Of a stretch of DNA of 64,000 nucleotides, positions 17,658 to 38,340 are shown one piece after another. The DNA is from Flectonema sp. DT1601 (taxonomy: Eukaryota): positions 806,001 through 870,000 of the forward strand of contig OZ025803.1 in NCBI GenBank assembly GCA_964019425.1, in the 5' to 3' direction. The notes beneath the pieces were generated by a model. That model was not told the origin of the DNA, searched no databases, and saw only the letters and a list, made by a program, of their open reading frames with translations. Made by a program: the position numbers and the translations under genes. Positions within the stretch are counted from its first letter, which is position 1. Every line of letters starts with the position of its first letter.

Positions 17658-19800
17658 TTTTATTTATTTATTTAGTCACATCCCCCCTGTCTTTCCACTT
17701 TATTTTTCTTCATTCTGAGCATTCTTGCCCTTCTTATTTTTTGATAAAGTAAACAAGTAAGAATAAGCGCAACTGTCCTGAGTCCGTTGGAGGACTTCCC
17801 CGGATAGGAATCTCAAGACACAGTTAATATAAAGCGAAGGATCAGTACAGGGACGGTGGCCAAAGACCACTGGGTTACCTACGAGCCATGAAGCTCTGCG
17901 GATGTCCTCAGAGAAATAATTAGGATTATCCTTATTTCTGATTCTCTCAGCATGTCCTTGGGGTATCGAGCCGCTCTCAGGCCTGCGGTAGTTCACCCGT
18001 TTGATCAGTGGTTTCGCCCTTGCTGAACCCTCCATAATCTTACCAAACAGCTTTCTGTTAGCTTCCCTCGCTATCCTTGACTTATGTGCGAAGAAGTCCA
18101 TAGTTGTTGACACCGGCTTGCTCTTAACATCTTTTGATTTTTTTTTCGCCAGTTCATCTGCCTTGTCATGCGGTTCAATCCCCACGTGAGCTGAAGGTGT
18201 ACGAATGAGTCTAATTTTCTTATCCCTTCTAGTATCGAGAGAGAGTTCAGCTTCCTCTGAGCCTCAATTCCACCACGCAGCTCATCCAGATTGGATTTAG
18301 AATCACTGAAGACTCTCGTGATTCCAGATCTGGGACCCAGGACAGAGGTTGCTTTTCCAAATTCCCTTATCAACAACTTCAGAGTTATCTGTTCAGCCTT
18401 GTAACTACTTTCCGTTGCAATAAGTCTCGAAGCCATGGCACGGCGAGATCTGCACCGCTGCTGCGCCTTAGCCTTGTCCACTTCAGCACACCGGTCTTCG
18501 AATGTCCATATCCACAAGATATCTCCAGGCTCGGAACATCTATCCATGGCTCGATGCTGTCAGGCATGACAATCCCTTGGATCTTCATATTGGCTTGCTT
18601 CTCAATCTGCAGTCTCATCGGGAGTATGTTCGCCTCCCACGGTAACGGAAGGGACCTTGTGTTGAAGCCGCAGCCGGTGACCTTCCTTGTTATCTACTTC
18701 TTACCGTACTTATCAGCAAGATAGCCTCCAATAGGTGACCCAACGAGACCAGCACATGCGACTGAAAACAACATTCCAATCTGTGATGTGGACGCACTCA
18801 AGACAGCTGCTGCGTGAAGAGGAACCAACACCATCTGTGCTGCGTATCCGAAGAATAGCGCCGTGTTCATAGCTGCGATAGCCAAAGTTGGAGCAATTCA
18901 ACTTTGATTTCAAAACGCTGAACATGATCAAGAACTTATACATCCTCTCAAGGATTCTGTATGGGCTTGAGAGCTATGGACCTTTCTTGACAGATGAACA
19001 GCTTAAACCTATTGACCTGAAGCAGAACAAGGCATCTTCCTAGGGAATCCCAGCCTCAATACATATTCCTAGGAGTCCACCGGCATCCCGCAGGTCTTCG
19101 AGACCGACAGTGCCATGTCATTGTCTTTGCACCAACGATCTCGCTAACCCAAGGACTAATTGCGCCTTCCGTAAGTTATTTTAAAATCCTTATCCAAGCT
19201 GTGTCGTCTGCGTAGAGTGCTGAAACACATCCAGTCTTCTCAAGTTTCTTAGCCAGGTCGTCGACATATATCAGATAAAGGAGAGGCCCAACAATCGACC
19301 CTTGTGTAACACCTTTCGTCACCGTTCTGTATGCGCTCAGATTGCCATTGACACTAACCTTTGCTTTCCTTCGCGTCAGAAAGTTAGCGACCCATCCGAT
19401 GAATGGTGAAGGAATCCCCATCGCTACCATTTTAGCGATCAGTTTAACACTTGCCACCTTTTCTCGCACCATGCAGCGCATTGACCAGCAGTGATATTTA
19501 CTCGCAAGCATTCCTGCCCCTTCTGAAACCTGCCTGAATGGAGGACAAGGCGTTATGCGACGTCAACAAGGTGATCGGTCTGTAGCGAAGAAGTGAATAG
19601 TTTTTCTTTGGGCTTACCCGGTCAGGGAAATCCTGGGAGTTTGGCTGGTAACATGCCAGCAGCTAGCTACTCTGATTCCAAGACCGTGCTCATTGAGTAC
19701 AAGCCCAAGGCCCCCTCAATCTCGTCCGCCTTATCCTGCGCGATACTAAGAGTAGTATCATCCTTTGGCCGCCAACTGAAGCCTTCACTGCCTGCTCACA
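17658..19800 (-). mobile_element. Element D: degenerate, internally deleted and rearranged relative of family-A non-LTR retrotransposon
   Basis: Same (TAAA)n tail and 3' UTR as family A. Fragments match family-A RNase H (FSDSKSNL, HVGIEPHDKAD), RT (GVTQGS, YADD), PGKPK..RPITL and probably ORF1 (PAKLP). Frameshifts and deletions throughout. Confidence 0.88.
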
Positions 19801-20175
19801 ATTAAAAATTTCCCAGAAAAAATAAAGTGGGGGGGGATCGGGAGTGATGCGAATAAATAAAAACTTTTTTTATTTATTTATTTATTTATTTAGTCACATC
19901 CCCCCTGTCTTTCTACTTTGTTTTTATTCTTTCTGAGCATACTCGCTCTTCTTATTTTTTAACTAAGTAAATAAGCAACAACGAGTGCAACTGTTGTGAG
20001 TCCGTTGGAGGACTTCCCCGGATAGGAAGCTCACGACACTGTAAGTACAAAGCGAATGATCAATACGGAGACGGTGGCCAAAGACCACTGGGTTACCTGC
20101 GAGCTATGAAGCTCTACGGATGTCCTCAGAGAGTTATTAGGAGATGAATTAGGAGTGATGTATGAGTATGATATA

Positions 20176-23100
20176 CTAAAAAGATAGTAACTTCTGATAA
20201 CAGCTTGTTGCCGTCCATTGTTCTAAATGCCATATGAAGCCAGCGAGGGAATGTAAGTTCCTCGTAGCGAACATAAATAGCAGGCTGTGTTCCTTCTTTG
20301 AAATCTTCGCTTCTTCCATGACAGATCCAATTGTTCCATTTCTGATGCGTACCAGAGCAGAGTTCATGCAGTTAAACATCAAGTGTCTAGGTGATGAGTC
20401 CGTCCGTTTACAAAAAGGGCACTTCAGTTGTACGCCTTTGTCTCTCAGCAAGGGGTGTGAACCCGTTCTGAATTGTGCAATTCTTACTTCCGAAGCCCTC
20501 AGCATGTCTTTCGGATATCTAGCAGTTCTCAATCCTCCGGTCGCCTCCAGATACTGTCTGAGCATCACCCGTTTCATTGGAGGCTTTGCCTTCTCGGAGG
20601 CTTCCATCATCTTTCCTATCAACTTCCTGTGAGACTCCCTCGCTACCCTTGATTTGTGGGCGAAGAAATCCATGGTCGTTGAGACCGGTTTACTTTCGGC
20701 ATCCTTCGAGACTTCTTTGGCCAGCTTATCAGCCTTATCGTGTGGTTCAATCCCCACATGGGCCGGGATAAACTGGAGATGCACCTGTGTCTTCAGATCC
20801 CTAATGCTTTCCAGTATTAACAGAGAGTTCAACTTCCTCTGGGCAACAATCCCTCCATTGAGTTCCTCCAGGTTGGATTTCGAGTCACTGAAGATTCTGG
20901 TAATACCTGACCTGGGACCCAAGATCGAGTCAGCTTTGCCAATTTCTCTCATCAGCAGTTTGAGTGTTACTTGTTCAGCCTTGTAGCTGCTTTCAGTAGC
21001 TACAAGTCTTGACGACATCGTTCTCTCAGTTGGTGAGACCTGTACTGCTGCCGCACCCGCAGTGTAGTTAGCAGGATCATGTGAGCCGTCCACATATATA
21101 GCCGAGTTGCAAGGGACTAGGTCCCTGCAGTATTCCTCAAATTTGTTCCTATCCACATCTGCATCACCGGTCTTGTTATGACCATACCCACAGGATATCT
21201 CTAGATTTGGTACATCCGCCCAAGGTTCGATGCTGTCAGGTTGAACTATTCCTTGGAGGGCGATGTTACAATCTTCCTGCGGCAACTTAGAACTCCAGAA
21301 TCCTTTCGCTATTCGGTTCGTCGAACGTACCCACCTCAGCGATCGATACCTAAACAGAGCAGTTCTGGCCTGTTTTTCTATTATCAACTTCATCGGGAGC
21401 ATGTTCGCCTCCAAGAGCAGTGGGAGAGACCTGGTGTAGATGCTGCAACCCGTTATCCTTCTCGCAATCTTCTTCAGATTCAAGTCCACAAGATCAATCT
21501 GACCCTCAGATAGGAAAGGACCGAAGCTCTCCAGCCCATATGACAGCCTTGAAAGTATGTACAGGTTCTTGACCATGCACAGCGTCTTAAAATCAAAATC
21601 ATACTGTTCTAGTTTCCCCAGGAGTGCAAGACCCTTCCTGGTCTCATCCAGCATCTTTCCGACCTGTGTTCCATAAGATAAATCACCATCAATGTGCACC
21701 CCCAGGTATTTAACGCTGTCTACCATCGGCATCAGTACTGCGGTTAACAACTTTACTCTCAGCTTACTTGATCCATCAGGGAAAATTGCAAGCAGGTCCT
21801 TCGTATTAGCAACTTCGGTATCATCCACCTTGAGAATGGTTTCTCCACTACCCAGAATTGGCCTTCCAAACTCGTTCGGTCTGATCATCTTAGCCAGATC
21901 TCCCCTGCTTACAACGTAATAATTATCCTTTGCAGTCCTGGGGAAGCCCAGTCTCCAGTAGATATCCTTTGGGCAGCGCACAGGCATACCACATGTCTTA
22001 GAGACGGACAGTGCCATGTCATTGGTTTTGCACCAGCTATCCACAAGTCCAAGGATCCATTGCGCTTTCTTATTGGTTAAATTAACGTCCTTATCAGAGA
22101 CTACACAAGCGGTGTCATCTGCATAAAGAGCCGAAACTGAGCCAGTCTTTTCCAACAACTTCGCCAGGTCATCAACATAAATCAGGTATAGCAGCGGACC
22201 GATAATCGAACCTTGGGGAACCCCCCTCGTTACCGTTCTGTAGGAGCTAAGGTTGCCATTCGCACTCACCCTTGCCTGCCTGCCCTTCAGGAAGTCAACT
22301 ACCCATGCAATGAACGGGGAGGGAATACTCATGTTCTTCATCTTCTTGATCAGTTTCTCATGATTAATTCTATCAAATGCTTCCGTGAAGTCGAACGACA
22401 GCAGAACAGAGCTCTTGTTCTTTTCACTGGCCTCATGAAGAGCGTTGACTAACATTGAAATCTGCTCACACGTATTCCTTCCTCTTCTAAAACCCGCCTG
22501 GATAGACGACAGGGCATTGTTCTGGGTAAGCCAATACATCAACCTATCATAAATCACTCTTTCAAGTACTTTACCCACCACCGAGGTCAACGTGATCGGT
22601 CTGAAACTTGCGATCTTATCTTTTGGCTTACCTGGTTTGTAAACTGGCTTGATAAGACCCTCCTTCCAGATCCTCGGTACCTTTGACGTTAGCCACGATT
22701 CATTGAATAACGCCAGGAGGAAATCCATTCCTATCACCGATAAGTTCTTCAACATTATCCCATGGATTCCATCTGGACCTGGTGCTTTCCCGGGCCTTAC
22801 CTTCTTGATGGCTCGCTTCAGTTCAGTCATTGTTAGATTCCCTCCGATTTTGGCGAAGTCGCTGCTCTTCGTATTCGGAGGTCCTAGTTTACGTTTTGTC
22901 GGGGTCTTGACAAATTGTTCCAAGAACTTCGCAGGTAGTTGGTTCTCGTCAAACTCCGGAATGTGAATTTCACGTCCTTCATCCGTCTCAAGGTCCTTTA
23001 TCTTTTTGAACGCATATGCAAAGCCTTCACCTTTTGCTAGCCGTTCAGCGATAAATTTTCCCTTCGCACGCTTGGTATCTGGGGTGGAAGCGTTCCACAT

Positions 23101-24063
23101 TCTTCTTCTCTTCCCTTTGATCCGAAGCCTTCTCCTAACGTACCTCTTCGCTACTCCAAGAACGATTCTGTTGAACGTTACTGCTCTTCTCCCAACGCTC
23201 GCAGAGTTGTTTACCTTTCCAAACCTGTAGTCTAGTTCATGTTCATATGAGTACCAATCAGCTGTATTGAAGTCCCAGACCGATCTCTTCGTCGCGTGGT
23301 TGCCCGAAGGCTCAAGGGGTGAGAGCGTATCGAAGGTAGCAGAGAGTGGTGTATGATCCGAACCGTGCTCAATTCCTTCACCTACCAGCTCAAAGTTAAG
23401 CAGTTGAATCTCCTCGTGGTGCAGGATCAGATCGGGCGAGGTCCCATGTCTCGGCAGTGTCGCTAGACCTGGCGGGTTCGCAATCAGGAGGTCCTCTTGC
23501 CCTGTCCAGTTGAGAAGGTCACAGCCTTTTACGTCGGTTTTCTTGGACCAGTACCTATGGTGTGCGTTGAAGTCACCAGCGAGAATGAACTTGCCAACAC
23601 GTTTAAGGGAGAATAGTTCAAAATTAATCCTCGAGCTCGGTGGGGAGTAGATGTTGAGAATACTTACGTCTTCGTTAATTCTGACACCCATCGACTCGAC
23701 GGTTCCTCTCATCGACGGTATGGAGATATCAAAGCAATCATGTTGAATTCCTCGTTTTATTAAAGTGATCAGGCCACCTCCCCTTCCTGGCCTATCCCTC
23801 CTGTAGCAAACGTAGTTCCAATGAAACAATGCCATCCTGCAAGAAGTCTCCTGAAGGCAAAGTACGTCGGGGTCAAGCTTACTCAGGATGTGTCCAATGA
23901 ACTCCATTTTGTTCGAGATGGTGCGACAATTCCAACTGATTACATTTAGTTTGCAAGAGGGACCATCCTTTCTCCTATTCGGCCCTGGGTTTCGTTCAAC
24001 GTCCCCTGCTATCAGCAAGAGACGTCTTCGAGTCTCAGCCCAGTTCCTTCCATCTACGTGCCG
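20176..24063 (-). CDS. ORF2 of family-A copy 1: 2A-like peptide, APE endonuclease, reverse transcriptase, RNase H, C-terminal Cys/His motif
   Basis: ISWN, LQET, NIYSPP, AGDFNAH, SDH; PGPDG, FRPITL, QAGF, PQGS, YADD, YLG; YVDGS, FSDS, PAHVG; CPFC...HLMFNC. The frame is open from the ORF1 stop at 24064-24066. Confidence 0.95.
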   Translation of the reverse strand, partial: RHVDGRNWAETRRRLLLIAGDVERNPGPNRRKDGPSCKLNVISWNCRTISNKMEFIGHILSKLDPDVLCLQETSCRMALFHWNYVCYRRDRPGRGGGLITLIKRGIQHDCFDISIPSMRGTVESMGVRINEDVSILNIYSPPSSRINFELFSLKRVGKFILAGDFNAHHRYWSKKTDVKGCDLLNWTGQEDLLIANPPGLATLPRHGTSPDLILHHEEIQLLNFELVGEGIEHGSDHTPLSATFDTLSPLEPSGNHATKRSVWDFNTADWYSYEHELDYRFGKVNNSASVGRRAVTFNRIVLGVAKRYVRRRLRIKGKRRRMWNASTPDTKRAKGKFIAERLAKGEGFAYAFKKIKDLETDEGREIHIPEFDENQLPAKFLEQFVKTPTKRKLGPPNTKSSDFAKIGGNLTMTELKRAIKKVRPGKAPGPDGIHGIMLKNLSVIGMDFLLALFNESWLTSKVPRIWKEGLIKPVYKPGKPKDKIASFRPITLTSVVGKVLERVIYDRLMYWLTQNNALSSIQAGFRRGRNTCEQISMLVNALHEASEKNKSSVLLSFDFTEAFDRINHEKLIKKMKNMSIPSPFIAWVVDFLKGRQARVSANGNLSSYRTVTRGVPQGSIIGPLLYLIYVDDLAKLLEKTGSVSALYADDTACVVSDKDVNLTNKKAQWILGLVDSWCKTNDMALSVSKTCGMPVRCPKDIYWRLGFPRTAKDNYYVVSRGDLAKMIRPNEFGRPILGSGETILKVDDTEVANTKDLLAIFPDGSSKLRVKLLTAVLMPMVDSVKYLGVHIDGDLSYGTQVGKMLDETRKGLALLGKLEQYDFDFKTLCMVKNLYILSRLSYGLESFGPFLSEGQIDLVDLNLKKIARRITGCSIYTRSLPLLLEANMLPMKLIIEKQARTALFRYRSLRWVRSTNRIAKGFWSSKLPQEDCNIALQGIVQPDSIEPWADVPNLEISCGYGHNKTGDADVDRNKFEEYCRDLVPCNSAIYVDGSHDPANYTAGAAAVQVSPTERTMSSRLVATESSYKAEQVTLKLLMREIGKADSILGPRSGITRIFSDSKSNLEELNGGIVAQRKLNSLLILESIRDLKTQVHLQFIPAHVGIEPHDKADKLAKEVSKDAESKPVSTTMDFFAHKSRVARESHRKLIGKMMEASEKAKPPMKRVMLRQYLEATGGLRTARYPKDMLRASEVRIAQFRTGSHPLLRDKGVQLKCPFCKRTDSSPRHLMFNCMNSALVRIRNGTIGSVMEEAKISKKEHSLLFMFATRNLHSLAGFIWHLEQWTATSCYQKLLSF

Positions 24064-25034
24064 TCATTTACCTTCCAAGAATCTCGTCATCAGCATCTCT
24101 AAACGATCCATCCTTCGTTCCATCGTATCCTGTTCAGCTGTCGACTTCTTCACAGTTTTCTTTGTCACAACCTGCTCTACAGGACCTACTTCCTTCAAGG
24201 CTCCTTTCCTCTCCTCAATCTTCACACCCGCTTCCCGCCAGAGTCTCTTCCCCTTCCCCTTACCATGAAAGGATAAGAATTCTGCTCGCAAGTAGCAACG
24301 ATTAGAGGCCTCCCCCTCTGTTGGATCACGTCTCTTCTCCGGCGGAGTAAGGCCTTTTTCCGGTGTGCTCTCCGCAGTTGACGTTGGCTGAGTTTTCTCC
24401 TTCACATCCACCTCTCTGGCAGCTTGGCGCTTCTTACGATCTTGTCTTTGAACTACCTCAACCGTACATGCCCTACCGTCGATTAATACCGTGTCGTCAT
24501 CCGGCACTTCAGCACGCACCCTCATCCATCTGTATCCAGTCCTTACTCCATCCACGGTTGCTCTCACATGCCACCCATCCTTCGCCAGCAGCGCTACCGC
24601 TTCACGGGGAAGTACATCTAACGGAATTCCCGAGATTTCTAATTCAGGGAGCTTTGCAGGGATTCCCAGTTTTTCCCTGGTTACATCTTCCAGCTCCGGT
24701 GAAACTCTGATACCAAAACCTTTAGGGTTTTCGACTAATCCCAACGATTCCAAGGAATCAGAGTGTTCAACTGCCTCCTTCAAAGAGCACTCGTCCTGAA
24801 GCCAAATAACTGTATCCTTCGGAGCCTCCCCTTCGTCTTGGATCCACAAGAACCTCCCATCTTTGCCGGAAGTTCTTAGCAGTTCCACCGCCCCGGATTT
24901 CCTCAGTCGGATGACAGCCGACACCGTACTCTTCGTTACCCTGAAGTTGTACGCTTCCATGAAGCCGGGTGTGTCCTTCATTTCTTTTGTGATGAGGTGC
25001 TCAGGCTTGCTCGCTAACTCAAGCCACTTATCAT
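24064..25034 (-). pseudogene. C-terminal portion of ORF1, family-A copy 1 (truncated and interrupted)
   Basis: Near-identical to the last ~320 aa of ORF1 at 35048-38212. The track N-terminus MVHSKKKKN comes from the poly-A tail of element B. Confidence 0.9.
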
Positions 25035-28000
25035 TTTTTTTTTTTTTTGAGTGCACCACGACCCGTGAGTCTGTGATGCTGTTTGCGCTGTTAGGCGCGG
25101 CTGTTCTTTTTCTTTCTTTCTTTCTTACTTTCTTTGTTTTGGGGGTTGGGGGTGGGAATCCCGTAGGCTTCGTATCTCCTTTCTTTGTTTTGATAACTTA
25201 AAACTAATACTACATAATTAATTGTCCACTTGGACGACTTCAGATGTGTTGCAATGATGCCTTCAATGTTGATATTCGAAATGTCGATGTTTTAATAATA
25301 CTACCGTCCTAATAGTTGTGCCAGTCTGTCTAAGGTTGTGACAAAACCAGTCATCTGCTGTTGATTCGCAGGTAAGTAGCAGTCCTCCAGTTGGCATGCT
25401 TCCTCTCCCTTGTCATTCATCATGTGACTGATGTATTTTTCTCTCAAGGTTTCTATACACCAATGTTCGCATATAAATAATACATGATGTGCTGTCGCCT
25501 TTCCAAGTTTACAGAAAAAGCACAGCTCGTTCAGTCCTTTGATTATCAGAGATCTGCAATGTCCCACTCTAAAGCGTGACATCAGTACTTCCTCTGGTCG
25601 TGTTAGAGCTTCGATGTACGGAGGGTGTCTTACCTCTCCCGGTCCGATCCAGTTCTCCCGTTTTCTCCGCTTGTGAAACGTCATCAATGTTCCCATGTCA
25701 AGTTGAGTGGGCAGTTGTTTAATAATAACATCTTCGTGAGGTGGATCTTCCTTCAGGCCTGCAGCGAATTTCGCCAGTTGGTCCGCTACTTCGTTGTACC
25801 GCACGTTTCTGTGTGCCGGTACATACTGCATGTTGACTTGGATTCCCTTCTTCTCCAGTTTCATTGCCAACTTCCAGATCTTTTTGTTCATTGGGGACCT
25901 TTGTTTATATGGCCCTTGTTCCAATGCCTGCATGACTGACATCGAATCAGTCAACAGGTGCGTCGTTGTTGTTAGAGATTCATGTTCATCCTCCGCCACC
26001 TGAACTAAATTTTCCAACGCCAGTTTCACTGCAATCTGCTCGGTCCTATAAGAGGAACCCGCTACTGGTATTTTATATCCAAGTAGACGCATCTTGCTTT
26101 CGTTAACCATGACCACAGCGGCAGCCGCGTCTGTCATGTACGTGTTGGGTTTGGGTCTTATCGACCCGTCAGTGTAGACTTTCATCTCGTGGGCTGGTAG
26201 TTCAGTTTCTCGCTGTTCAGCCTCTTCCTTGTTACTTGAATATGTGAATCTCATCGCACTAGTACTTTCCCATGGAGGGAGAGTGTAGTGTTCTGGGTTC
26301 ACTTCCAGGTTGGTAATGCTCCGGTAATTGTCAAGGCCAGGGATACCAGAGACATAGTCTATCCAGACATTCCATCCCCATTTTGATTTTTGAAATAATT
26401 CTGAACTCCCTGTTCTCGTCAGCTTGCGAGTCGGTAGGAACGGACTTAATTTGAAACGTTCATAGGTTCTACACATCTTATACTGGTTGTGTTCCTTCAG
26501 TCTTGGCGTGTCGGCTTCTTTGTAAAGTCTCTGTAGTTTGGTGCTCCGCAGACATCCAGTTACCAGCCTCACTGCCCTGTTTACCAGTAATTCCAGTTGT
26601 TCGAAGCACTCTTTTGGTAGCATCCAAGCAAAGCTTTCAACACCATAAAGCACCCTTGCTAACACCACCGTCACCAGTATACTGATGAGTGTCCTCTTTC
26701 TGCAGCCTATCCTAGTGAGTCTAACCAACAAGCCTAGACCCTTGGAAGCAGCTGTCATCATCTTTTGAATTTGCGACTTAAAGGTTAACTTCTCGTCATA
26801 ATGTACACCCAGGTACCGCACGGTATTCGTCTTGTGAACTTTTCGTCCAACCGCATAGGCAAATCCGTGTAATCCGGGCCCCACTCTTTCCAGCATCTTA
26901 TCTATTTCTGCCTTGTTGTGGACTTTCTTCAGTTGTGAGAAGCTGGCGCTCATCTTCATTGTTTTCAGTACCGCCGGTTTGTTCGGTAGCTTGACTTTGA
27001 TCTTATGTTTTGGAACGACATACAGGTGAGTGATGGCGAATTCTTCTTTTGAAACTACAGTTGTTGAGTTATCATCCTTCACAAGGTTACTCATTTGTTC
27101 TGCCGTGGCCACCACATATTTAAATGTGTGTTCTTCAGAGTATACTACTACTGGGGACTTGTCATGAGTTCCACTTGGCCTCACGTGAATGTATTCCGTC
27201 TTGCCAGGGTTCTTATTGATTTTGATGTGTGAGTCAAGTGCCCACCTTTCAAATATTTTGACTGCGTTGTTAACCTTGTTTTCTAAACAGCTGACAGTGC
27301 CCGCGGTTATTACTATTCCAACATCATCTGCAAAGACAGTCGGTTCGTACATCTCTAGTTTATCTATCAAATCGTTGATGAAGATAGAGAATAACTGGGG
27401 TCCCAGCACGCTTCCTTGTGGTACTCCTACTCGAATGTTCCGGAATGCTCCCTTCACTCCATTCACCCTTGTTGAAATCTTCCTACTAGTCAAGTAGTTT
27501 TGAACCCACCGTAGATATTTCGTTGGTAGTCCTATTTTGGACATCTTATTTAGAAGAGTTACCGGTTGAACTGCATCGAAGGCTTTTTGTAGGTCGAAGG
27601 TGATTAATATCGCTTCTTCCCCCATTGCCTTGGCACTTTTGAGTTTGTCTGTAACTATACAGAGATTTTCAATGGAATCCCGTCCTCGTTTGTAGGCTGC
27701 TTGCCTCGGATTTATTCTGTCTTTCAACAGGTGGTGCATCCGTTCTACGACCATTCTTTCAAAGAGTTTCGAGACGGTCGAGGTTAGTGCTATCGGTCTG
27801 TACGATAAGACTTGTTTCTTGTCTTTATCAGGTTTCAGTATGGGTATTACCATTCCACTTTTCCAGCACCTGGGTACTGCTGATCGTTGCCATGAGAGGT
27901 TGAATAGTCTTAGTAGTTGCTCGAGGAAAGCTTTTGGAAGTTGTTTTAACATCGAGTTCCAGATGTGGTCAGGTCCAGGTGCCTTCTTCTCTTTTGTTTT

Positions 28001-29137: not shown

Positions 29138-30848
29138 TTTTTTTTTTTTTTTTTTTTTTTTTTCATTACTACCTGAAACTGTCTCTTCTTTTTCTACAGC
29201 AACGGGCTGACGCAAAACACGCGTACATTTAATGTGGGTCCAGGGCAATTGCCCACCTCATAAGAGGCCCATTGTTCTTCCTTTCTTTCTCCCCAAGTTA
29301 GTAAGGCAGGTGTAAAATAAAATAACAAAAAGAAATTTATTTATGGGGAGGAATTGTCAATCGTAAGATATGACTTATACTTATCACATATGTAAATATG
29401 TGGAGAAGGTAAGAACAATAACGAAAAACTTCATGTCGAAGTTGCAGCTCGTCGCAATTTGAATTGACATAGCTGTAGCTGCTATGTGCTTTTTGGGGAT
29501 GGCCTGAAAGGTGCGGACTTTCATCTAAGATCTCAAAAACTCTCGATCTGTGTCCAATCTATATCGGCCCATCAATCAATCAACAATCAGACCATCCCCA
29601 TGGTGTAGGTGCTACTTTGGTTAATTTGGAAGCTTGAGAAATCAAGTCAGTTGTGAGTTTTGAATCACAGTATTGAAAAGTGTGGGTTGAAGGATAACGT
29701 TTTCTTCATTTTCTTTCTTTGTTTCCTGACTCAAATTTTCTTTTTTCTTTTCTTTTTCTGGAAAAACATATCTTCTTGCAGATGACATAAAAAGAAAAAC
29801 ATTCTCTAGTCCTTGTACAGTGGAAAGACAATCCTTTAACTCTTCTTGTGTTAGAGAGTCTTTCTGGAGATACATCCTCCTCTCTTTTCTGTACTTTGAG
29901 CATTTTGCTAACAGGTGCTCTACAGAGTCTTTTTCTCTGCACCTAGGACATTTCCCTTGTGTTTGTTTACAGTCGCCAATTCTGAGTTGTGAAATCAGAA
30001 TTTCTTCCGCTCTTTCAGTTTCAGATGGGAAAGGACGGGGGTCAAATTTTTCTTTTATTCTGTGTTTTAGTTTAGCTACATGGGTGCTGTAGTCTATGGG
30101 AACTTTTTTTTGTTTTAAAAGGGTTTCTTCATCTTTTTTTAATGAAATGTTTTGGGCTAGTTTGTCTGCTTCTTCGTTTCCGACAATACCACAGTGAGAA
30201 AAGACATGCTGGAAAATAAACTTTGTTTTGAATTTATTGTTGAAAAATTCAATAAACTGCCAGATGCGGCTTCCTAGTCTCGTTTTCTGTTTTGTTCCCC
30301 CTTTTTCCAGTTCCATCAAGGCACTGGAGGAGTCTGACACAAATAAAACTGACGCATTTTCCGGCGGTTTAAATTCCTTAAAAAGTAAAACAAAAGCGTT
30401 TTTGATCGCCATCATTTCAGCCCTAAAAGAGGTGCAGATTATTCCTGCTTCACTTTTGTTCGTGAGAAATTCATTTCCTTCGCTGTCTATGATGTACACA
30501 CCCGCAGCACCGCGTTCTTCAACAACGGCACCATCGGTATATACCTCTAAGACTGGTTCATAATCTTTCCTTATTTCATTAAGAACAGCTTCACAGGCTT
30601 TTTTATTTTTCTTTTTGTCTTTTTTTTTTCTAACATGCATTTCTGGTTTAAAAACATTGAAATCATTTGAAAAACTCCATGGAGGATGAACGTAAATGGG
30701 ATATTTCTCAAAACTGAGTGATAGAAGGTTGTGTTCTTTCAGAACATTCATTCCTAAACGAGTAAAAGAATCAATGGGTGTTGAGGATATTCTTTCAGGT
30801 GGAATAAAGACATTTAATAAAGGGGACGTGATTCGCGCCATTTTGGCG
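29138..30848 (-). mobile_element. Element C: third family, heavily 5'-truncated non-LTR retrotransposon (RNase H and Cys/His end only; ORF 29642-30841)
   Basis: Long poly-A tail (T run 29138-29163) and ~480-nt 3' UTR. PPW, VYTDGA, SFRAE, VSDS, HVFSHCGIVGNEEAD, CPRC...HLLAKC. Much more AT-rich than families A and B. Confidence 0.9.
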
Positions 30849-31159
30849 AACCATCATTTATTTATTTATTTATTTAGTCACATCCCCCCTGTCTTTCTAC
30901 TTTGTTTTTATTCTTTCTGAGCATACTCGCTCTTCTTATTTTTTAACTAATTAAATAAGCAACAACGAGTGCAACTGTTGTGAGTCCGTTGGAGGACTTC
31001 CCCGGATAGGAAGCTCACGACACTGTAAGTACAAAGCGAATGATCAATACGGAGACGGTGGCCAAAGACCACTGGGTTACCTGCGAGCTATGAAGCTCTA
31101 CGGATGTCCTCAGAGAGTTATTAGGAGATGAATTAGGAGTGATGTATGAGTATGATATA

Positions 31160-34100
31160 CTAAAAAGATAGTAACTTCTGATAACAGCTTGTTGCCGTCC
31201 ATTGTTCTAAATGCCATATGAAGCCAGCGAGGGAATGTAAGTTCCTCGTAGCGAACATAAATAGCAGGCTGTGTTCCTTCTTTGAAATCTTCGCTTCTTC
31301 CATGACAGATCCAATTGTTCCATTTCTGATGCGTACCAGAGCAGAGTTCATGCAGTTAAACATCAAGTGTCTAGGTGATGAGTCCGTCCGTCTACAAAAA
31401 GGGCACTTCAGTTGTACGCCTTTGTCTCTCAGCAAGGGGTGTGAACCCGTTCTGAATTGTGCAATTCTTACTTCCGAAGCTCTCAGCATGTCTTTCGGAT
31501 ATCTAGCAGTTCTCAATCCTCCGGTCGCCTCCAGATACTGTCTGAGCATCACCCGTTTCATTGGAGGCTTTGCCTTCTCGGAGGCTTCCATCATCTTTCC
31601 TATCAACTTCCTGTGAGACTCCCTCGCTACCCTTGATTTGTGGGCGAAGAAATCCATGGTCGTTGAGACCGGTTTTCTTTCGGCATCCTTCGAGACTTCT
31701 TTGGCCAGCTTATCAGCCTTATCGTGTGGTTCAATCCCCACATGGGCCGGGATAAACTGGAGATGCACCTGTGTCTTCAGATCCCTAATGCTTTCCAGTA
31801 TTAACAGAGAGTTCAACTTCCTCTGGGCAACAATCCCTCCATTGAGTTCCTCCAGGTTGGATTTCGAGTCACTGAAGATTCTGGTAATACCTGACCTGGG
31901 ACCCAAGATCGAGTCAGCTTTGCCAATTTCTCTCATCAGCAGTTTGAGTGTTACTTGTTCAGCCTTGTAGCTGCTTTCAGTAGCTACAAGTCTTGACGAC
32001 ATCGTTCTCTCAGTTGGTGAGACCTGTACTGCTGCCGCACCCGCAGTGTAGTTAACAGGATCATGTGAGCCGTCCACATATATAGCCGAGTTGCAAGGGA
32101 CTAGGTCCCTGCAGTATTCCTCAAATTTGTTCCTGTCCACATCTGCATCACCGGTCTTGTTATGACCATACCCACAGGATATCTCTAGATTTGGTACATC
32201 CGCCCAGGGTTCGATGCTGTCAGGTTGAACTATTCCTTGGAGGGCGATGTTACAATCTTCCTGCGGCAACTTAGAACTCCAGAATCCTTTCGCTATTCGG
32301 TTCGTCGAACGTACCCACTTCAGCGATCGATACCTAAACAGAGCAGTTCTGGCCTGTTTTTCTATTATCAACTTCATCGGGAGCATGTTCGCCTCCAAGA
32401 GCAGTGGGAGAGACCTGGTGTAGATGCTGCAACCCGTTATCCTTCTCGCAATCTTCTTCAGATTCAAGTCCACAAGATCAATCTGACCCTCAGATAGGAA
32501 AGGACCGAAGCTCTCCAGCCCATATGACAGCCTTGAAAGTATGTACAGGTTCTTGACCATGCACAGCGTCTTAAAATCAAAATCATACTGTTCTAGTTTC
32601 CCCAGGAGTGCAAGACCCTTCCTGGTCTCATCCAGCATCTTTCCGACCTGTGTTCCATAAGATAAATCACCATCAATGTGCACCCCCAGGTATTTAACGC
32701 TGTCTACCATCGGCATCAGTACTGCGGTTAACAACTTTACTCTCAGCTTACTTGATCCATCAGGGAAAATTGCAAGCAGGTCCTTCGTATTAGCAACTTC
32801 GGTATCATCCACCTTGAGAATGGTTTCTCCACTCCCCAGAATTGGCCTTCCAAACTCGTTCGGTCTGATCATCTTAGCCAGATCTCCCCTGCTTACAACG
32901 TAATAATTATCCTTTGCAGTCCTGGGGAAGCCCAGTCTCCAGTAGATATCCTTTGGGCAGCGCACAGGCATACCACATGTCTTAGAGACGGACAGTGCCA
33001 TATCATTGGTTTTGCACCAGCTATCCACAAGTCCAAGGATCCATTGCGCTTTCTTATTGGTTAAATTAACGTCCTTATCAGAGACTACACAAGCGGTGTC
33101 ATCTGCATAAAGAGCCGAAACTGAGCCAGTCTTCTCCAACAACTTTGCCAGGTCATCAACATAAATCAGGTATAGCAGCGGACCGATAATCGATCCTTGG
33201 GGAACCCCCCTCGTTACCGTTCTGTAGGAGCTAAGGTTGCCATTCGCACTCACCCTTGCCTGCCTGCCCTTCAGGAAGTCAACTACCCATGCAATGAACG
33301 GGGAGGGAATACGCATGTTCTTCATCTTCTTGATCAGTTTCTCATGATTAATTCTATCAAATGCTTCCGTGAAGTCGAACGACAGCAGAACAGAGCTCTT
33401 GTTCTTTTCACTGGCCTCATGAAGAGCGTTGACTAACATTGAAATCTGCTCACACGTATTCCTTCCTCTTCTAAAACCCGCCTGGATAGACGACAGGGCA
33501 TTGTTCTGGGTAAGCCAATACATCAACCTATCATAAATCACTCTTTCAAGTACTTTACCCACCACCGAGGTCAACGTGATCGGTCTGAAACTTGCGATCT
33601 TATCTTTTGGCTTACCTGGTTTGTAAACTGGCTTGATAAGACCCTCCTTCCAGATCCTCGGTACCTTTGACGTTAGCCACGATTCATTGAATAACGCCAG
33701 GAGGAAATCCATTCCTATCACCGATAAGTTCTTCAACATTATCCCATGGATTCCATCTGGACCTGGTGCTTTCCCGGGCCTTACCTTCTTGATGGCTCGC
33801 TTCAGTTCAGTCATTGTTAGATTCCCTCCGATTTTGGCGAAGTCGCTGCTCTTCGTATTCGGAGGTCCTAGTTTACGTTTTGTCGGGGTCTTAACAAATT
33901 GTTCCAAGAACTTCGCAGGTAGTTGGTTCTCGTCAAACTCCGGAATGTGAATTTCACGTCCTTCATCCGTCTCAAGGTCCTTTATCTTTTTGAACGCATA
34001 TGCAAAGCCTTCACCTTTTGCTAGCCGTTCAGCGATAAATTTTCCCTTCGCACGCTTGGTATCTGGGGTGGAAGCGTTCCACATTCTTCTTCTCTTCCCT

Positions 34101-35047
34101 TTGATCCGAAGCCTTCTTCTAACGTACCTCTTCGCTACTCCAAGAACGATTCTGTTGAACGTTACTGCTCTTCTCCCAACGCTCGCAGAGTTGTTTACCT
34201 TTCCAAACCTGTAGTCTAGTTCATGTTCATATGAGTACCAATCAGCTGTATTGAAGTCCCAGACCGATCTCTTCGTCGCGTGGTTGCCCGAAGGCTCAAG
34301 GGGTGAGAGCGTATCGAAGGTAGCAGAGAGTGGTGTATGATCCGAACCGTGCTCAATTCCTTCACCTACCAGCTCAAAGTTAAGCAGTTGAATCTCCTCG
34401 TGGTGCAGGATCAGATCGGGCGAGGTCCCATGTCTCGGCAGTGTCGCTAGACCTGGCGGGTTCGCAATCAGGAGGTCCTCTTGCCCTGTCCAGTTGAGAA
34501 GGTCACAGCCTTTTACGTCGGTTTTCTTGGACCAGTACCTATGGTGTGCGTTGAAGTCACCAGCGAGAATGAACTTGCCAACACGTTTCAGGGAGAATAG
34601 TTCAAAATTAATCCTCGAGCTCGGTGGGGAGTAGATGTTGAGAATACTTACGTCTTCGTTAATTCTGACACCCATCGACTCGACGGTTCCTCTCATCGAC
34701 GGTATGGAGATATCAAAGCAATCATGTTGAATTCCTCGTTTTATTAAAGTGATCAGGCCACCTCCCCTTCCTGGCCTATCCCTCCTGTAGCAAACGTAGT
34801 TCCAATGAAACAATGCCATCCTGCAAGAAGTCTCCTGAAGGCAAAGTACGTCGGGGTCAAGCTTACTCAGGATGTGTCCAATGAACTCCATTTTGTTCGA
34901 GATGGTGCGACAATTCCAACTGATTACATTTAGTTTGCAAGAGGGACCATCCTTTCTCCTATTTGGCCCTGGGTTTCGTTCAACGTCCCCTGCTATCAGC
35001 AAGAGACGTCTTCGAGTCTCAGCCCAGTTCCTTCCATCTACGTGCCG
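31160..35047 (-). CDS. ORF2 of family-A copy 2: 2A-like peptide-APE-RT-RNase H
   Basis: Same motifs as copy 1, with about five amino-acid differences. No in-frame ATG before the APE ISWN motif; the track start is a TTG. Confidence 0.95.
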   Translation of the reverse strand, partial: RHVDGRNWAETRRRLLLIAGDVERNPGPNRRKDGPSCKLNVISWNCRTISNKMEFIGHILSKLDPDVLCLQETSCRMALFHWNYVCYRRDRPGRGGGLITLIKRGIQHDCFDISIPSMRGTVESMGVRINEDVSILNIYSPPSSRINFELFSLKRVGKFILAGDFNAHHRYWSKKTDVKGCDLLNWTGQEDLLIANPPGLATLPRHGTSPDLILHHEEIQLLNFELVGEGIEHGSDHTPLSATFDTLSPLEPSGNHATKRSVWDFNTADWYSYEHELDYRFGKVNNSASVGRRAVTFNRIVLGVAKRYVRRRLRIKGKRRRMWNASTPDTKRAKGKFIAERLAKGEGFAYAFKKIKDLETDEGREIHIPEFDENQLPAKFLEQFVKTPTKRKLGPPNTKSSDFAKIGGNLTMTELKRAIKKVRPGKAPGPDGIHGIMLKNLSVIGMDFLLALFNESWLTSKVPRIWKEGLIKPVYKPGKPKDKIASFRPITLTSVVGKVLERVIYDRLMYWLTQNNALSSIQAGFRRGRNTCEQISMLVNALHEASEKNKSSVLLSFDFTEAFDRINHEKLIKKMKNMRIPSPFIAWVVDFLKGRQARVSANGNLSSYRTVTRGVPQGSIIGPLLYLIYVDDLAKLLEKTGSVSALYADDTACVVSDKDVNLTNKKAQWILGLVDSWCKTNDMALSVSKTCGMPVRCPKDIYWRLGFPRTAKDNYYVVSRGDLAKMIRPNEFGRPILGSGETILKVDDTEVANTKDLLAIFPDGSSKLRVKLLTAVLMPMVDSVKYLGVHIDGDLSYGTQVGKMLDETRKGLALLGKLEQYDFDFKTLCMVKNLYILSRLSYGLESFGPFLSEGQIDLVDLNLKKIARRITGCSIYTRSLPLLLEANMLPMKLIIEKQARTALFRYRSLKWVRSTNRIAKGFWSSKLPQEDCNIALQGIVQPDSIEPWADVPNLEISCGYGHNKTGDADVDRNKFEEYCRDLVPCNSAIYVDGSHDPVNYTAGAAAVQVSPTERTMSSRLVATESSYKAEQVTLKLLMREIGKADSILGPRSGITRIFSDSKSNLEELNGGIVAQRKLNSLLILESIRDLKTQVHLQFIPAHVGIEPHDKADKLAKEVSKDAERKPVSTTMDFFAHKSRVARESHRKLIGKMMEASEKAKPPMKRVMLRQYLEATGGLRTARYPKDMLRASEVRIAQFRTGSHPLLRDKGVQLKCPFCRRTDSSPRHLMFNCMNSALVRIRNGTIGSVMEEAKISKKEHSLLFMFATRNLHSLAGFIWHLEQWTATSCYQKLLSF
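34964..35047 (-). other. 2A-like StopGo (ribosome skipping) peptide RHVDGRNWAETRRRLLLIAGDVERNPG/P (also 23980-24063)
   Basis: Matches the D(V/I)ExNPGP consensus with the typical upstream RRLLL-x-x-G segment. Confidence 0.92.
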
Positions 35048-38000
35048 TCATTTACCTTCCAAGAATCTCGTCATCAGCATCTCTAAACGATCCATCCTTC
35101 GTTCCATCGTATCCTGTTCAGCTGTCGACTTCTTCACAGTTTTCTTTGTCACAACCTGCTCTACAGGACCTACTTCCTTCAAGGCTCCTTTCCTCTCCTC
35201 AATCTTCACACCCGCTTCCCGCCAGAGTCTCTTCCCCTTCCCCTTACCATGAAAGGATAAGAATTCTGCTCGCAAGTAGCAACGATTAGAGGCCTCCCCC
35301 TCTGTTGGATCACGTCTCTTCTCCGGCGGAGTAAGGCCTTTTTCCGGTGTGCTCTCCGCAGTTGACGTTGGCTGAGTTTTCTCCTTCACATCCACCTCTC
35401 TGGCAGCTTGGCGCTTCTTACGATTTTGTCTTTGAACTACCTCAACCGTACATGCCCTACCGTCGATTAATACCGTGTCGTCATCCGGCACTTCAGCACG
35501 CACCCTCATCCATCTGTATCCAGTCCTTACTCCATCCACGGTTGCTCTCACATGCCACCCATCCTTCGCCAGCAGCGCTACCGCTTCACGGGGAAGTACA
35601 TCTAACGGAATTCCCGAGATTTCTAATTCAGGGAGCTTTGCAGGGATCCCCAGTTTTTCCCTGGTTACATCTTCCAGCTCCGGTGAAACTCTGATACCAA
35701 AACCTTTAGGGTTTTCGACTAATCCCAACGATTCCAAGGAATCAGAGTGTTCAACTGCCTCCTTCAAAGAGCACTCGTCCTGAAGCCAAATAACTGTATC
35801 CTTCGGAGCCTCCCCTTCGTCTTGGATCCACAAGAACCTCCCATCTTTGCCGGAAGTTCTTAGCAGTTCCACCGCCCCGGATTTCCTCAGTCGGATGACA
35901 GCCGACACCGTACTCTTCGTTACCCCGAAGTTGTACGCTTCCATGAAGCCGGGTGTGTCCTTCATTTCTTTTGTGATGAGGTGCTCAGGCTTACTCGCTA
36001 ACTCAAGCCACTTATCATCCTTCCACCTTCTTTTAGGAGCGGTCACTATTGCCTTCACCGATTTAATACCCCGCTTACCCTTTGGTAGAGCAGCCTCACC
36101 CAGGTCATGAATGAAGATGCGATGTACCTTGTTTCCATCCTTGCTCGATAATAGCACGTGTTCCCTTCTTCCTTGTCCATTCACTTGGTCCAGCGTTACC
36201 ACGCTGCACGTTTTCCATGCAGGAACCTCCGGCTTCATCCCCAGAAGATCTCTTGCCTCCGAAGGCGTCGCAAGGGCTACTCCTTGATTCCCTTTCGATA
36301 CCTCCTCAAACTTCGTGACCGGAATGTTCCAATCAGCTTCCCTCAGGCTCCAGGAGTTCAACACTTCCCTCTCCTTCTTGTTGGTTTTCTCCCAGAGACG
36401 TCTGGCTTTTTCAACAGCTTTCATCGACTGCGTCGCTTTCTTTTCCAGTGATTCCCACTCGGATGTGCAGTTCCTCTGTACAGCTGATCTAACCTTTGAC
36501 TCATCAGTGGTGAGGCCGTAGGAGCGAGAGTAGGTCAGACCGTTCACTAAGTTGGCAATTCCCAGTGGTGGTTGGCTCGGGGCTACTACGACCTCATTCA
36601 CTTCTTCGCTTCTCTGCGCTCTCGATGAGGCCAACTCCTGTCTCAGTTCTTTTAGCTGAGTCTGGAGTTCCATGAGCAACTTCCTCAGCTCACCCTTCTC
36701 TTCTCTCTCTTTCTGGAGCTCCAGTCGGAGTTGTTCAATTCCCTGTTGTTGCGGAAGTACCGGCGGGTACGGTTGCCTTTGATGCATCGGTGCATAAGGC
36801 TGGTGCTGCATGTAGTAGACCGGAGGTTGGCTTACTGCATGCGTTTGCTGACGGAGGCTGCTTTGTTGGAGTTGGAGCTTCTGTTGCTGTTGTCGCAGTT
36901 TTCCTTCTTGAAGTTCCAGATCTAGCTTTGACTTCTGGTCTTCTTGTTGCTGTTGTTCGAACTCCTTTCCAAGCTCCCGTTGAAGTTGGAGCAGTTCCTT
37001 CCTCCCTTGTTCCTTCTCCTTTTCTTGTTGTTGTTGGAGTTGATGGCTACGCAGCTTCTGTTGTTCGAACTCCATGTCTAGCTTGTTCCTGAGACACTGG
37101 AGTTCCTTCCTACCCTTCTCCATCTCGTCCTCCTGCTGGCGTTGTAGTTGGAGTCGTTGATGCTCAAGGTCATCTTCCTGCTTTTTGATTTCTTCCCGTC
37201 TCTGTTGTTGTTGCTGCTGGTCCAGTTTGCCCTTTTCCAACTCCACATTCAGTTGATGTTGAAGCAGCTGCTGTTTTTCCTCCAGGCTAACCTGTTGCAG
37301 TTGCAGATTCTGTTGAATCCTGGACTGTTCTTGTTGTTGTTGGCGTTGGTCTTCTTCGAGTTGGCATCTTCTTCTTCGGAGAGATTCATCCTCGACAGCC
37401 TTCTCCTTGCTGTGCTGCTGTTCGAGCTGCTGTTGTTGGATCAGTATTTGTTCCTGCTTCTGTTGTAGGTCTGCTTTATATTGTAGCAGTTCTTGTTGTT
37501 GTTGGTTTAACAACTCTTGGCTATGTTGTTGGTTTTGATGTTGTTGTTGGACTTGATGCTCAAGTTGTTGTTGCTGTTGTATATGCTTATCCTGCTGTTG
37601 TTGGACTTGTTGATCAAGTTGCTGTTGCTGCTGCTGTTGGATTTCCTGCTGCTTTTTGACTTGATGGCTAAGTTGCTGTTCTTGCTGTTGTTGCTTCAGA
37701 CAGAGTTCATCTTCGTACTGAGTAAGAGCCTTCTGTTGTTGATGCAGATGTTCCTGGTTTTGTTGCTGTTGATGGTCCAGTTGTTTCTGGTTGACAAGTT
37801 GTTGCTGTTGATGGTTAGTCAGTACTTCCTCAAGCTGTTGTTGCTTTTGGAATAATTCTTCCTGTTTCTTCTGGAAGTTAACTTCTAGCTCACTCTGTTG
37901 TTTGCAGAGGAGCTCTTGTTGTTGCAGCAGTTCGTTCTTCTCTTCTTCCTGCTCTGCCTGTTTTTTCTTGAGGACCTTCTCGTCCTTCTTCCTGTCTTCG

Positions 38001-38212
38001 TCCCGATCCAGCCTTCTTAGGCCATCCCGTGCGAGTCTCTCCCTCAACTCGTCTCGTTCCTTCGTGTCTACGCTCGTCTTCCTGTCTTTCTTACCGTTCC
38101 CGTTCTCTGTGTGTGCTTTCCGGTTCCTTTCCTTCCGTGAGAGTATTTCACCTCCCATCTGGTTGCAAAATTTAGTCGGTCTCTGCCGTCCGAGACCGCC
38201 GCGTGGAGGCAT
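35048..38212 (-). CDS. ORF1 of family-A element: basic N-terminus, long Gln/Glu-rich coiled coil, globular C-terminal region
   Basis: Uninterrupted 1054-aa ORF between the 5' ribozyme fold and ORF2. No CCHC knuckle seen. Confidence 0.85.
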   Translation of the reverse strand: MPPRGGLGRQRPTKFCNQMGGEILSRKERNRKAHTENGNGKKDRKTSVDTKERDELRERLARDGLRRLDRDEDRKKDEKVLKKKQAEQEEEKNELLQQQELLCKQQSELEVNFQKKQEELFQKQQQLEEVLTNHQQQQLVNQKQLDHQQQQNQEHLHQQQKALTQYEDELCLKQQQQEQQLSHQVKKQQEIQQQQQQQLDQQVQQQQDKHIQQQQQLEHQVQQQHQNQQHSQELLNQQQQELLQYKADLQQKQEQILIQQQQLEQQHSKEKAVEDESLRRRRCQLEEDQRQQQQEQSRIQQNLQLQQVSLEEKQQLLQHQLNVELEKGKLDQQQQQQRREEIKKQEDDLEHQRLQLQRQQEDEMEKGRKELQCLRNKLDMEFEQQKLRSHQLQQQQEKEKEQGRKELLQLQRELGKEFEQQQQEDQKSKLDLELQEGKLRQQQQKLQLQQSSLRQQTHAVSQPPVYYMQHQPYAPMHQRQPYPPVLPQQQGIEQLRLELQKEREEKGELRKLLMELQTQLKELRQELASSRAQRSEEVNEVVVAPSQPPLGIANLVNGLTYSRSYGLTTDESKVRSAVQRNCTSEWESLEKKATQSMKAVEKARRLWEKTNKKEREVLNSWSLREADWNIPVTKFEEVSKGNQGVALATPSEARDLLGMKPEVPAWKTCSVVTLDQVNGQGRREHVLLSSKDGNKVHRIFIHDLGEAALPKGKRGIKSVKAIVTAPKRRWKDDKWLELASKPEHLITKEMKDTPGFMEAYNFGVTKSTVSAVIRLRKSGAVELLRTSGKDGRFLWIQDEGEAPKDTVIWLQDECSLKEAVEHSDSLESLGLVENPKGFGIRVSPELEDVTREKLGIPAKLPELEISGIPLDVLPREAVALLAKDGWHVRATVDGVRTGYRWMRVRAEVPDDDTVLIDGRACTVEVVQRQNRKKRQAAREVDVKEKTQPTSTAESTPEKGLTPPEKRRDPTEGEASNRCYLRAEFLSFHGKGKGKRLWREAGVKIEERKGALKEVGPVEQVVTKKTVKKSTAEQDTMERRMDRLEMLMTRFLEGK

Positions 38213-38225
38213 TTTGTGTGGTCCC
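38165..38225 (-). ncRNA. HDV-like self-cleaving ribozyme at the 5' end of the retroelement
   Basis: GGGACC-ACA-CAAAAU-GCC-UCCACGC-GGC-GGUCUC-GG-A-CGG-CAGAGA-CCG-A-CUAA-AUUUUG. P1 GGGACC/GGUCUC, P2 CAAAAU/AUUUUG, P3 GCC/GGC, L3 UCCACGC, P1.1 CC/GG, P4 CGG/CCG, J4/2 C-UAA carrying the catalytic C. Confidence 0.88.
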
Positions 38226-38268
38226 TAAAATAAAAAACCATCAATCTTTTTTTTTTTTTATCTTCAGA

Positions 38269-38340
38269 TCCGCTGTAGTATAGTGGTTAGAACACCTGGC
38301 CCTCACCCAGGAAACCGGGGTTCAATTCCCCGCAGCGGAA
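38269..38340 (+). tRNA. tRNA-Glu (anticodon CTC)
   Basis: Acceptor stem TCCGCTG/CAGCGGA, D loop AGTGGTTA, anticodon stem CCTGG/CCAGG with loop CC-CTC-AC, T arm CGGGG-TTCAATT-CCCCG. Confidence 0.93.

Follow-up and report, generated by a model that had tools for sequence, protein, structure and literature searches.

We analysed a 64,000-nucleotide (nt) stretch of the genome of Flectonema sp. DT1601 (GenBank assembly GCA_964019425.1, contig OZ025803.1, forward-strand positions 806,001 to 870,000; hereafter the window, with positions counted from its first letter), in which Ingi-like non-LTR (non-long-terminal-repeat) retrotransposons are stacked next to a tRNA gene. The anchor of the stack is tRNA-Glu(CTC) at 38269-38340 on the plus strand, which is followed by a T5 terminator and is the sole tRNA of the window (ARAGORN; Rfam RF00005, 61 bits). 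Every long host open reading frame (ORF), in contrast, is on the minus strand. The far boundary is formed by the host phosphoserine phosphatase gene (PSPH, 16643-17350, minus strand), and no host gene lies between PSPH and the tRNA. Self-alignment, Pfam and tblastn place five elements in this interval, termed D, A1, B (within A1), C and A2, all head to tail on the minus strand. This is the arrangement given in a preliminary description of the same DNA, to which we add a sixth, tail-only insertion at 29107-29127. That description had also placed A2 43 bp from tRNA-Glu with its 5' end toward the tRNA, and had seen no similar elements in the rest of the window. Both points hold: the first element base of A2 is 38225, leaving a gap of 43 nt and lying at -44 relative to the tRNA, and tblastn with nine family proteins (E<=1e-6) found no member of these families outside 17600-38300. 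Among 28 window ORFs scanned, reverse transcriptase (RT) or RNase H domains are confined to the four element ORFs.

From the tRNA outward, the stack begins with A2 (30857-38225), which is full length and ends in a (TAAA)n tail, followed by C (29144-30855), a 5'-truncated copy consisting of the last 403 codons with RNase H and a poly(A) tail. The tail-only insertion, which belongs to the A clade, comprises a T-rich patch and TAAA repeats. Next comes A1, which is interrupted by B. The truncated 5' remnant of A1 (29040-29091) ends in ATGAT (29040-29044), the left target-site duplication (TSD) of B; B itself (25035-29039) lacks its first 59 codons, encodes APE-RT-RNase H, ends in a poly(A) tail and is followed by its right TSD at 25030-25034. 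The body of A1 covers 19871-25034. Element D (17662-19863) is a decayed, deleted and partly inverted copy of family A', the sister of family A; it is the most decayed member of the stack and also the most distant from the tRNA, as described before. We observed that an internal segment of D (about 18885-19031) is inverted, with 92% protein-level identity to family A' on the opposite strand.

The insertions were peeled off one by one via their TSDs, and the start of each TSD was then measured from tRNA +1; homopolymer lengths leave an uncertainty of about 1-2 nt on the reconstructed TSD positions. A2 is flanked by TGATGGTT at 38236-38243 and 30849-30856, corresponding to -26 to -33. The C protein match begins at 30853, within the right copy of this TSD. 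Since the reading frame of C begins inside it, at least five and probably seven of the eight TSD bases are C's own 5' end. On the element strand, the TSD of C reads A(n)GA and has its end at -24; the left copy includes the T13 run at 38247-38259 (plus strand, -10 to -22), and its length is uncertain within this homopolymer. With A2 and C removed, AAAAAAG stands at -26 to -32 (29128-29134) and is duplicated at 29100-29106 around the 21-nt tail-only insertion. With the latter removed as well, AAAAAAG is again found at -26 to -32 and is duplicated around A1, the copy at 29100-29106 being also the left TSD of A1 and that at 19864-19870 being both the right TSD of A1 and the left TSD of D. The right TSD of D, AAAAG at 17657-17661, is 2 nt shorter than the others (-28 to -32). 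Except for the T13 run, these TSDs are given on the minus strand. The four A-clade events (A2, tail-only, A1, D) have TSD starts at -26, -26, -26 and -28, in two unrelated sequences. The TSD of B is located at -88, or at -116 if the tail-only insertion preceded B. The nesting order given by the TSDs bears out the earlier proposal that new copies displace old ones outward. The orientation, TSDs, nesting order and domains of the stack are direct observations, and the constant distance from tRNA +1 is reconstructed.

A1 and A2 are 99.57% identical over 5163 nt, and this similarity could be explained if the array were a misassembly or the product of unequal crossing-over between copies. We consider this explanation highly improbable. 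The two copies differ by 22 substitutions and no gaps, and the codon differences in ORF2 are mostly synonymous (12 synonymous, 5 non-synonymous), which fits two genuine recent copies. Moreover, each junction carries its own TSD pair and 5' patch, and complete peeling leaves a simple, empty PSPH-tRNA spacer of about 338 nt.

The A2 insertion is informative with respect to what determines the site. It held the -26 position after C had replaced the local bases, which argues for distance over sequence, and its TSD has no sequence in common with the other three A-clade TSDs. Outside the stack, the window contains, on its two strands, AAAAAAG 34 + 34 times, T or A runs of >=10 19 + 19 times and A10+GAY 1 + 1 times, all unoccupied. 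These observations also bear on the main rival reading, in which the endonuclease or zinc knuckle of the ORF2 protein (ORF2p) would recognize DNA directly, either as a T-run with a fixed offset or as the A/B box, without a tether to RNA polymerase III (Pol III), and selection in a gene-dense genome would keep mainly tRNA-adjacent insertions. This rival is in our view unlikely. It can draw on the T13 run that precedes the nick here and on four lysines, likely encoded by an A-run, at the same place in P0134, a protein call from another contig that is described below. Further, after the insertion of C two near-equal A-run + GAY sites were present, and the choice made by A2 could be a coin toss. 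In addition, L1Tc copies have one TSD sequence in common (PMC5814959, in excerpt). Against a direct reading speak the 38 T/A runs, 68 AAAAAAG and two A10+GAY motifs left empty outside the stack, the A2 TSD that is wholly unlike the other three, and B junctions at similar offsets in different sequences. None of these data speaks against the version in which the A/B box is read.

We also considered further copies of the families. One collection source holds 42 protein calls for A ORF2, 23 for A ORF1, 74 for A', 91 for B and 18 for C. Where a gene call starts upstream of the element, the extra residues report the flank, the flanks being back-translations and not DNA. In total, 159 calls were aligned to family references, namely 147 from clusters (456 members, 157 of them listed) and 12 separate representatives, and 18 of the 159 have extensions of >=10 amino acids (aa). 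Two extensions are antisense tRNA-like and one is sense tRNA-like; seven are element tails in the same orientation (six clear, one probable), four are the element's own 5' end (three) or B in another frame (one), and four are unexplained. The extension of P0134 (A ORF1, 32 aa) back-translates to an antisense tRNA 5' half, with the anticodon AAC in 1031 of 1686 fitting samples and first bases that we take to resemble eukaryotic tRNA-Val. The spacing from +1 to the ATG is 57 nt, compared to 56 nt at A2; seven of 5889 stop-free control peptides from the window fitted as well at 53-59 nt, and 57 did so anywhere. Family C provides a second case, P0149, in which an antisense A box and T arm are 42 nt apart, with about 8 nt between +1 and the element (13 of 13411 controls; corrected p of about 0.03 for 28 tests). 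A loose feasibility test for a tRNA 5' half, which 703 of 4812 controls passed, was discarded and replaced by a weighted test.

Calls of the sister ORF1 family provide information on B. In three of its 11 calls a B-type tail is attached, at codon 8, codon 9 and about codon 20 of 1073. Under the geometry of A2, and assuming that these copies face a tRNA, the joins would be at -78, -81 and -114, in different sequences. If the copies sit like A2, these positions match the offset of B in the window, and B likely uses a farther slot at about -78 to -116. In P0233, a family B call from another contig, the B body is joined a few bases after a sense tRNA-like sequence, which could be a template-switch chimera or a downstream insertion.

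The proposal that integration is targeted to the tRNA gene was already part of the preliminary description, and it is supported by the fixed distance of the four A-clade events together with one further A copy at matching spacing. We find the targeting to be well supported at this locus and thinly so genome-wide, and a number of points weigh against it. Three of the -26/-28 events share one sequence, so that A2 alone separates position from sequence, and an A-run + GAY was still present on the tRNA side when A2 inserted. Only this locus is read at the DNA level, the other cases being back-translated gene calls, and tRNA-like flanks are few among these (two antisense and one sense among 18 extensions of 159 calls), with the families totalling 456 protein calls on at least 84 contigs. 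The range of 53-59 nt was set around the value in the window after the P0134 match had been noticed by eye. P0149 yields no clean cloverleaf; neither for it nor for P0233 could a single cloverleaf be fitted by hand, and both have about 10 extra nt between the boxes. The tRNA-like sequence of P0233 (29 of 13411 controls) has the orientation opposite to that expected, and P0247 shows no tRNA signal in its extension of 70 aa, which is one of the four unexplained ones. Finally, 92 loci of distant relatives, whose best segments are 22-52% identical, all lack a tRNA; they come from other organisms (71 from metagenomes, 21 from a prokaryote-genome scan) and mostly lie on contigs too short for such a test. 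Viral contigs yielded neither a relative nor a match to a degenerate tRNA-like motif.

Another way to account for the stack is a self-feeding hot spot, in which a chance insertion near the tRNA left the place accessible or tolerant, and subsequent insertions favoured the termini of elements already there. Seven of the 18 extensions are same-orientation element tails or, in one case, look so, and at least two of the nine protein clusters occur together on 31 of 84 contigs, which speaks for such a process; the co-occurrence corresponds to about 124 equally likely contigs, a figure that is interpretable only with the assembly size. Tolerance could be conferred by the termination of RNA polymerase II, which in kinetoplastids takes place just upstream of tRNA genes (PMC6597758, in excerpt). 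We nevertheless judge a hot spot improbable, as newcomers are found at the 5' side of the last insert and not at its tail, the earliest insertion, D, already went to the common site, then still host DNA, tolerance gives no 3-nt range, and a different tRNA or tRNA-like gene shows the same spacing in P0134 (back-translated). A related alternative put forward earlier, a preference for the A/T-rich tails of earlier insertions, fails for A2 and C because both landed 5' of the previous insert.

The junctions themselves contain traces of the insertion process. The motif ATAAAA(A)C, which had been pointed out as recurring at the junctions, is indeed there. It also occurs 14 + 14 times on the two strands outside the stack, and at the junctions it is composed of the TSD end and a T-rich patch that belongs to the insert. 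At A2 most of the motif lies inside the TSD-bounded insert, and it is therefore a product of insertion and not the target; we rejected it as a target sequence. The 10-nt T-rich patch at the 5' junction of A2 (38226-38235, minus strand) probably derives from the (TAAA)n tail of A2 itself, copied in inverted orientation. When the 3' end of D is reverse-complemented, three pieces of it (10, 8 and 13 nt) are found, in the same order, in the 5' patch of D. An inverted A-type 3' end likewise supplies the residues with which the P0436 extension (sister ORF1 family) opens. For A2, A1 and the tail-only insertion, the patches are short and of such low complexity that they do not by themselves prove an inverted-tail origin. 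The patches are likely caused by a second nick that briefly primes on the RNA tail. We further observed that in P0436 the 5' end with its ribozyme-coding residues is duplicated, with the inverted 3'-end piece before it.

The 5' end of element A has the predicted fold of a complete ribozyme of the hepatitis delta virus (HDV) type, which at A2 covers 38166-38225 (minus strand), lies over the ORF1 start codon and has its +1 at the A2 5' end. It comprises P1 (6 bp), P2 (6 bp), P3 (3 bp), P1.1, P4 and the catalytic C in CUAA. The descriptor gave a single match over both strands of the window and none in six shuffled 64-kb strands. An Rfam match to CPEB3 at this site (19.4 bits, E 0.0045) is below the gathering score of 35. 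Over the ribozyme stretch the two ORF1 families are alike at 18 of 20 residues, compared to 34% over residues 500-1054, and in the sister family P1, P3, P1.1 and the catalytic C are kept, with four of six P2 pairs.

ORF1 of A2 (35048-38212, minus strand) encodes 1054 aa with a Q-rich N-terminal half and ends in a UGA stop that is followed by CGG. No Pfam, PDB-sequence or Atlas match was obtained for it. An RRM-like domain at residues of about 856-930 is weakly indicated (Z 6.6, root-mean-square deviation 3.5 over 70 residues) in a model with a pLDDT (predicted local distance difference test) of 46; the single-sequence model of ORF1 (pLDDT 38) was unusable. ORF1 of A is full length in six of the 16 calls listed for its cluster. 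The UGA-CGG end of ORF1 is shared by A1 and A2, and the same frame continues into ORF2. The 28 in-frame codons after the stop (34964-35047, minus strand) contain no AUG before the 2A-like motif DVERNPG/P with which they end (codons 21-28 of ORF2), and the first AUG of ORF2 is codon 53, beyond the first APE motif. The 1295 codons of A2 ORF2 (31160-35047, minus strand) encode an APE endonuclease, RT, RNase H and a C-terminal CX2CX8HX4C. UGA-CGG is a type II readthrough context, in which a 3' hairpin is frequent (PMC3159437, in excerpt); the region 3' of UGA-CGG has hairpin potential (z -2.5, 2 of 200 shuffles) and overlaps the 2A codons. Since a 2A peptide functions only with a ribosome arriving from upstream, readthrough of UGA-CGG followed by 2A StopGo is the simplest reading and the predicted mode of ORF2 expression. 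Its rival is non-AUG reinitiation. The use of TGA as a sense codon was rejected, since five of 20 host ORFs terminate in TGA.

We next asked how these elements relate to known clades. The nearest named relatives of A, B and C are transcripts of the diplonemid Flectonema neradi (40-49%, 44-58% and 35%, respectively), and no named ingi or L1Tc protein was among the matches of the protein searches. An RT tree of 48 rows, which include no ingi, L1Tc or TRE reference, groups A, A' and A'' together (100/100); A, B and C each stand with their own Flectonema relatives and are joined in a clade of 24 rows (97/95). The RT domains of A, B and C (31160-35047 and 25301-29044) contain, between the last RT motifs, an insertion that the clade has in common; in A, the Pfam match spans residues 480-790. 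In P0187, which belongs to A'', ORF2 continues into 175 foreign residues that presumably resemble a piece of a pogo-type transposase.

The label "Ingi-like" of the preliminary description is borne out in several respects. APE-RT-RNase H in one frame is found by Pfam in A, B and full-length C, the RNase H of A scoring below the cut-off (19-20 bits vs 25.8). A 2A-like peptide precedes APE in frame in A, full-length C, E5 and E7; none was seen for B, whose calls begin at APE. A 5' HDV-like ribozyme is indicated by the descriptor match and predicted fold. In E5, E7 and a Flectonema relative, a Met precedes the 2A-like motif, which is the ingi layout. The single ORF of Ingi elements is not the layout of A, which carries the 1054-aa ORF1 and is for this reason Ingi-like and not Ingi. 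Elements of the TRE family have an ORF2 without RNase H; its presence in A, B and C sets them apart from the TREs (PMC5006619 section 9).

Taken together, we favour, as the probable though by no means secured reading, a stack of six insertions of Ingi-like non-LTR retrotransposons whose site is likely set by the distance to the tRNA gene, probably through docking to a Pol III complex. Element A would be carried on the unidirectional host transcript and freed at 38225 by its 5' HDV-like ribozyme. ORF1p, with its coiled-coil-like and RRM-like parts, would be made in excess, and readthrough of UGA-CGG followed by 2A StopGo would release ORF2p. By analogy with TRE5-A, ORF1p or ORF2p may provide the tether by binding a TFIIIB-like factor. 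In the A clade (D, A1, tail-only, A2), nicking would occur at -26 to -28 and the 5' end would face the tRNA; the site of C would be closer to the gene, its TSD ending at -24, and that of B more distant (-88 or -116). Target-primed reverse transcription would begin at the nick, and brief recopying of the RNA tail from the second nick would leave the inverted patch. Each newcomer would insert between the tRNA and the previous copy, and because it lands on the tRNA-proximal side, the older copy is pushed outward. A wider proposal, which we put forward tentatively and hold to be less likely true than false, is that a diplonemid guild of Ingi-like retrotransposons splits the region upstream of tRNA genes into slots (C at about -9 to -25, A at -26 to -33, B at about -78 to -116). 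A third eukaryotic supergroup would thereby be added to those with Pol III-gene targeting. Lineage A would have gained an ORF1 tether and would achieve the expression of ORF2 through three RNA devices combined in a single transcript, namely a start-codon ribozyme, readthrough of UGA-CGG and release by 2A.

The closest parallel in behaviour is TRE5-A, a non-LTR element that inserts upstream of tRNA genes at a narrow distance with its 5' end toward the tRNA, forms tandems with older copies and has two ORFs with a lineage-specific ORF1 (PMC3159450 and PMC5391098, both in excerpt). Its ORF1p binds TBP in vitro (PMC5391098, in excerpt). A TRE5-type placement is seen in all six window insertions and, by back-translation, in P0134 and P0149, with P0233 as a possible exception; the narrow, sequence-independent distance is likewise present, with one event providing the sequence independence. 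TRE5 inserts about 50 bp upstream, whereas here the TSD spans -26 to -33 and the element itself begins at -44. RNase H, a 2A motif and a ribozyme fold further distinguish the present element from TRE5, and its host is Flectonema and not an amoebozoan. Pp_NLTR-B (about 50 bp) and Dp_NLTR-A (2-6 bp) are RNase H-containing non-LTR elements located upstream of tRNA genes, and the dictyostelid NLTR elements similarly have related families in different slots; Pp_NLTR-B and Dp_NLTR-A, which we liken to the present elements by description, could be placed in no known RNase H clade (PMC5006619 section 9). The elements thus behave like TRE5 and Pp_NLTR-B but are not TREs. With ingi and L1Tc they share APE-RT-RNase H, a 2A before APE, a 5' HDV-like ribozyme and tandem clusters (PMC3708506, PMC4035085 and PMC5814959, in excerpt), whereas Ingi-clade elements are described without ORF1 (PMC3708506, in excerpt), which in A is present with 1054 aa and is separated from the 2A by an in-frame stop. 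The word "tRNA" is absent from the main text of the L1Tc review (PMC5814959). As in Ty3, Ty1 and DGLT-A, Pol III factors would set the position, and the range used by DGLT-A, 13-33 bp upstream, coincides in part with the sites of A and C (PMC5006619); those, however, are LTR elements with an integrase, compared to an APE endonuclease and target-primed reverse transcription here. The type II readthrough of alphaviruses (UGA-CGG or UGA-CUA with a 3' stem-loop; PMC3159437, in excerpt) resembles the UGA-CGG before the polymerase frame and its downstream hairpin. Here, in contrast, a 2A motif follows the predicted readthrough site 27 codons on, in a retrotransposon.

Several further features lie elsewhere in the window. 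A 1554-codon ORF at 38537-43201 with hydrophobic segments and no Pfam match ends about 200 nt from the 3' end of the tRNA. The adenylate/guanylate cyclase-like frames at 53299-56412 are interrupted by an in-frame TAA, representing an intron or a pseudogene, and a pure (GCGTT)n microsatellite of about 23 units is located at 56723-56838. For the host complex III 14-kDa subunit the best solved match is chain 8iuf_QG, which we take to be from Euglena. A T-run is interrupted at 2448-3423 by an element of 976 nt that carries a piece of 28S rRNA (Rfam LSU, 94.7 bits) and is bounded by terminal inverted repeats of 57 nt (91% complementary); it is a non-autonomous DNA element with captured rRNA sequence. 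In Diplonema, unidirectional gene clusters and scattered 28S pieces have been described (PMC10161547, in excerpt). The gene layout, the complex III match and the relatives of the elements make a diplonemid host likely.

Retroelements that target tRNA genes are on record from budding yeast and, in at least six instances, from dictyostelids (PMC5006619 section 11). No report of a tRNA-targeting retroelement in Euglenozoa, nor of readthrough combined with 2A in a non-LTR element, was found in a literature search that left most subscription papers and supplements outside and covered other sources in part (the repeat supplements of PMC10161547 and PMC12278014 could bear on this). If true, a case from Euglenozoa in an Ingi-like lineage would show the same safe-harbour solution in gene-dense, polycistronic genomes with a divergent Pol III apparatus, and the different offsets of three lineages could be used to trace Pol III factors in a group for which no such map exists. 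The succession of insertions can be read from the stack itself, which also provides a rare internal test of position versus sequence, and an intact, recently active and position-specific LINE (long interspersed nuclear element) with a defined 5' end is a starting point for the study of targeted insertion. Finally, readthrough combined with 2A offers a path from single-ORF ingi to two-ORF elements.

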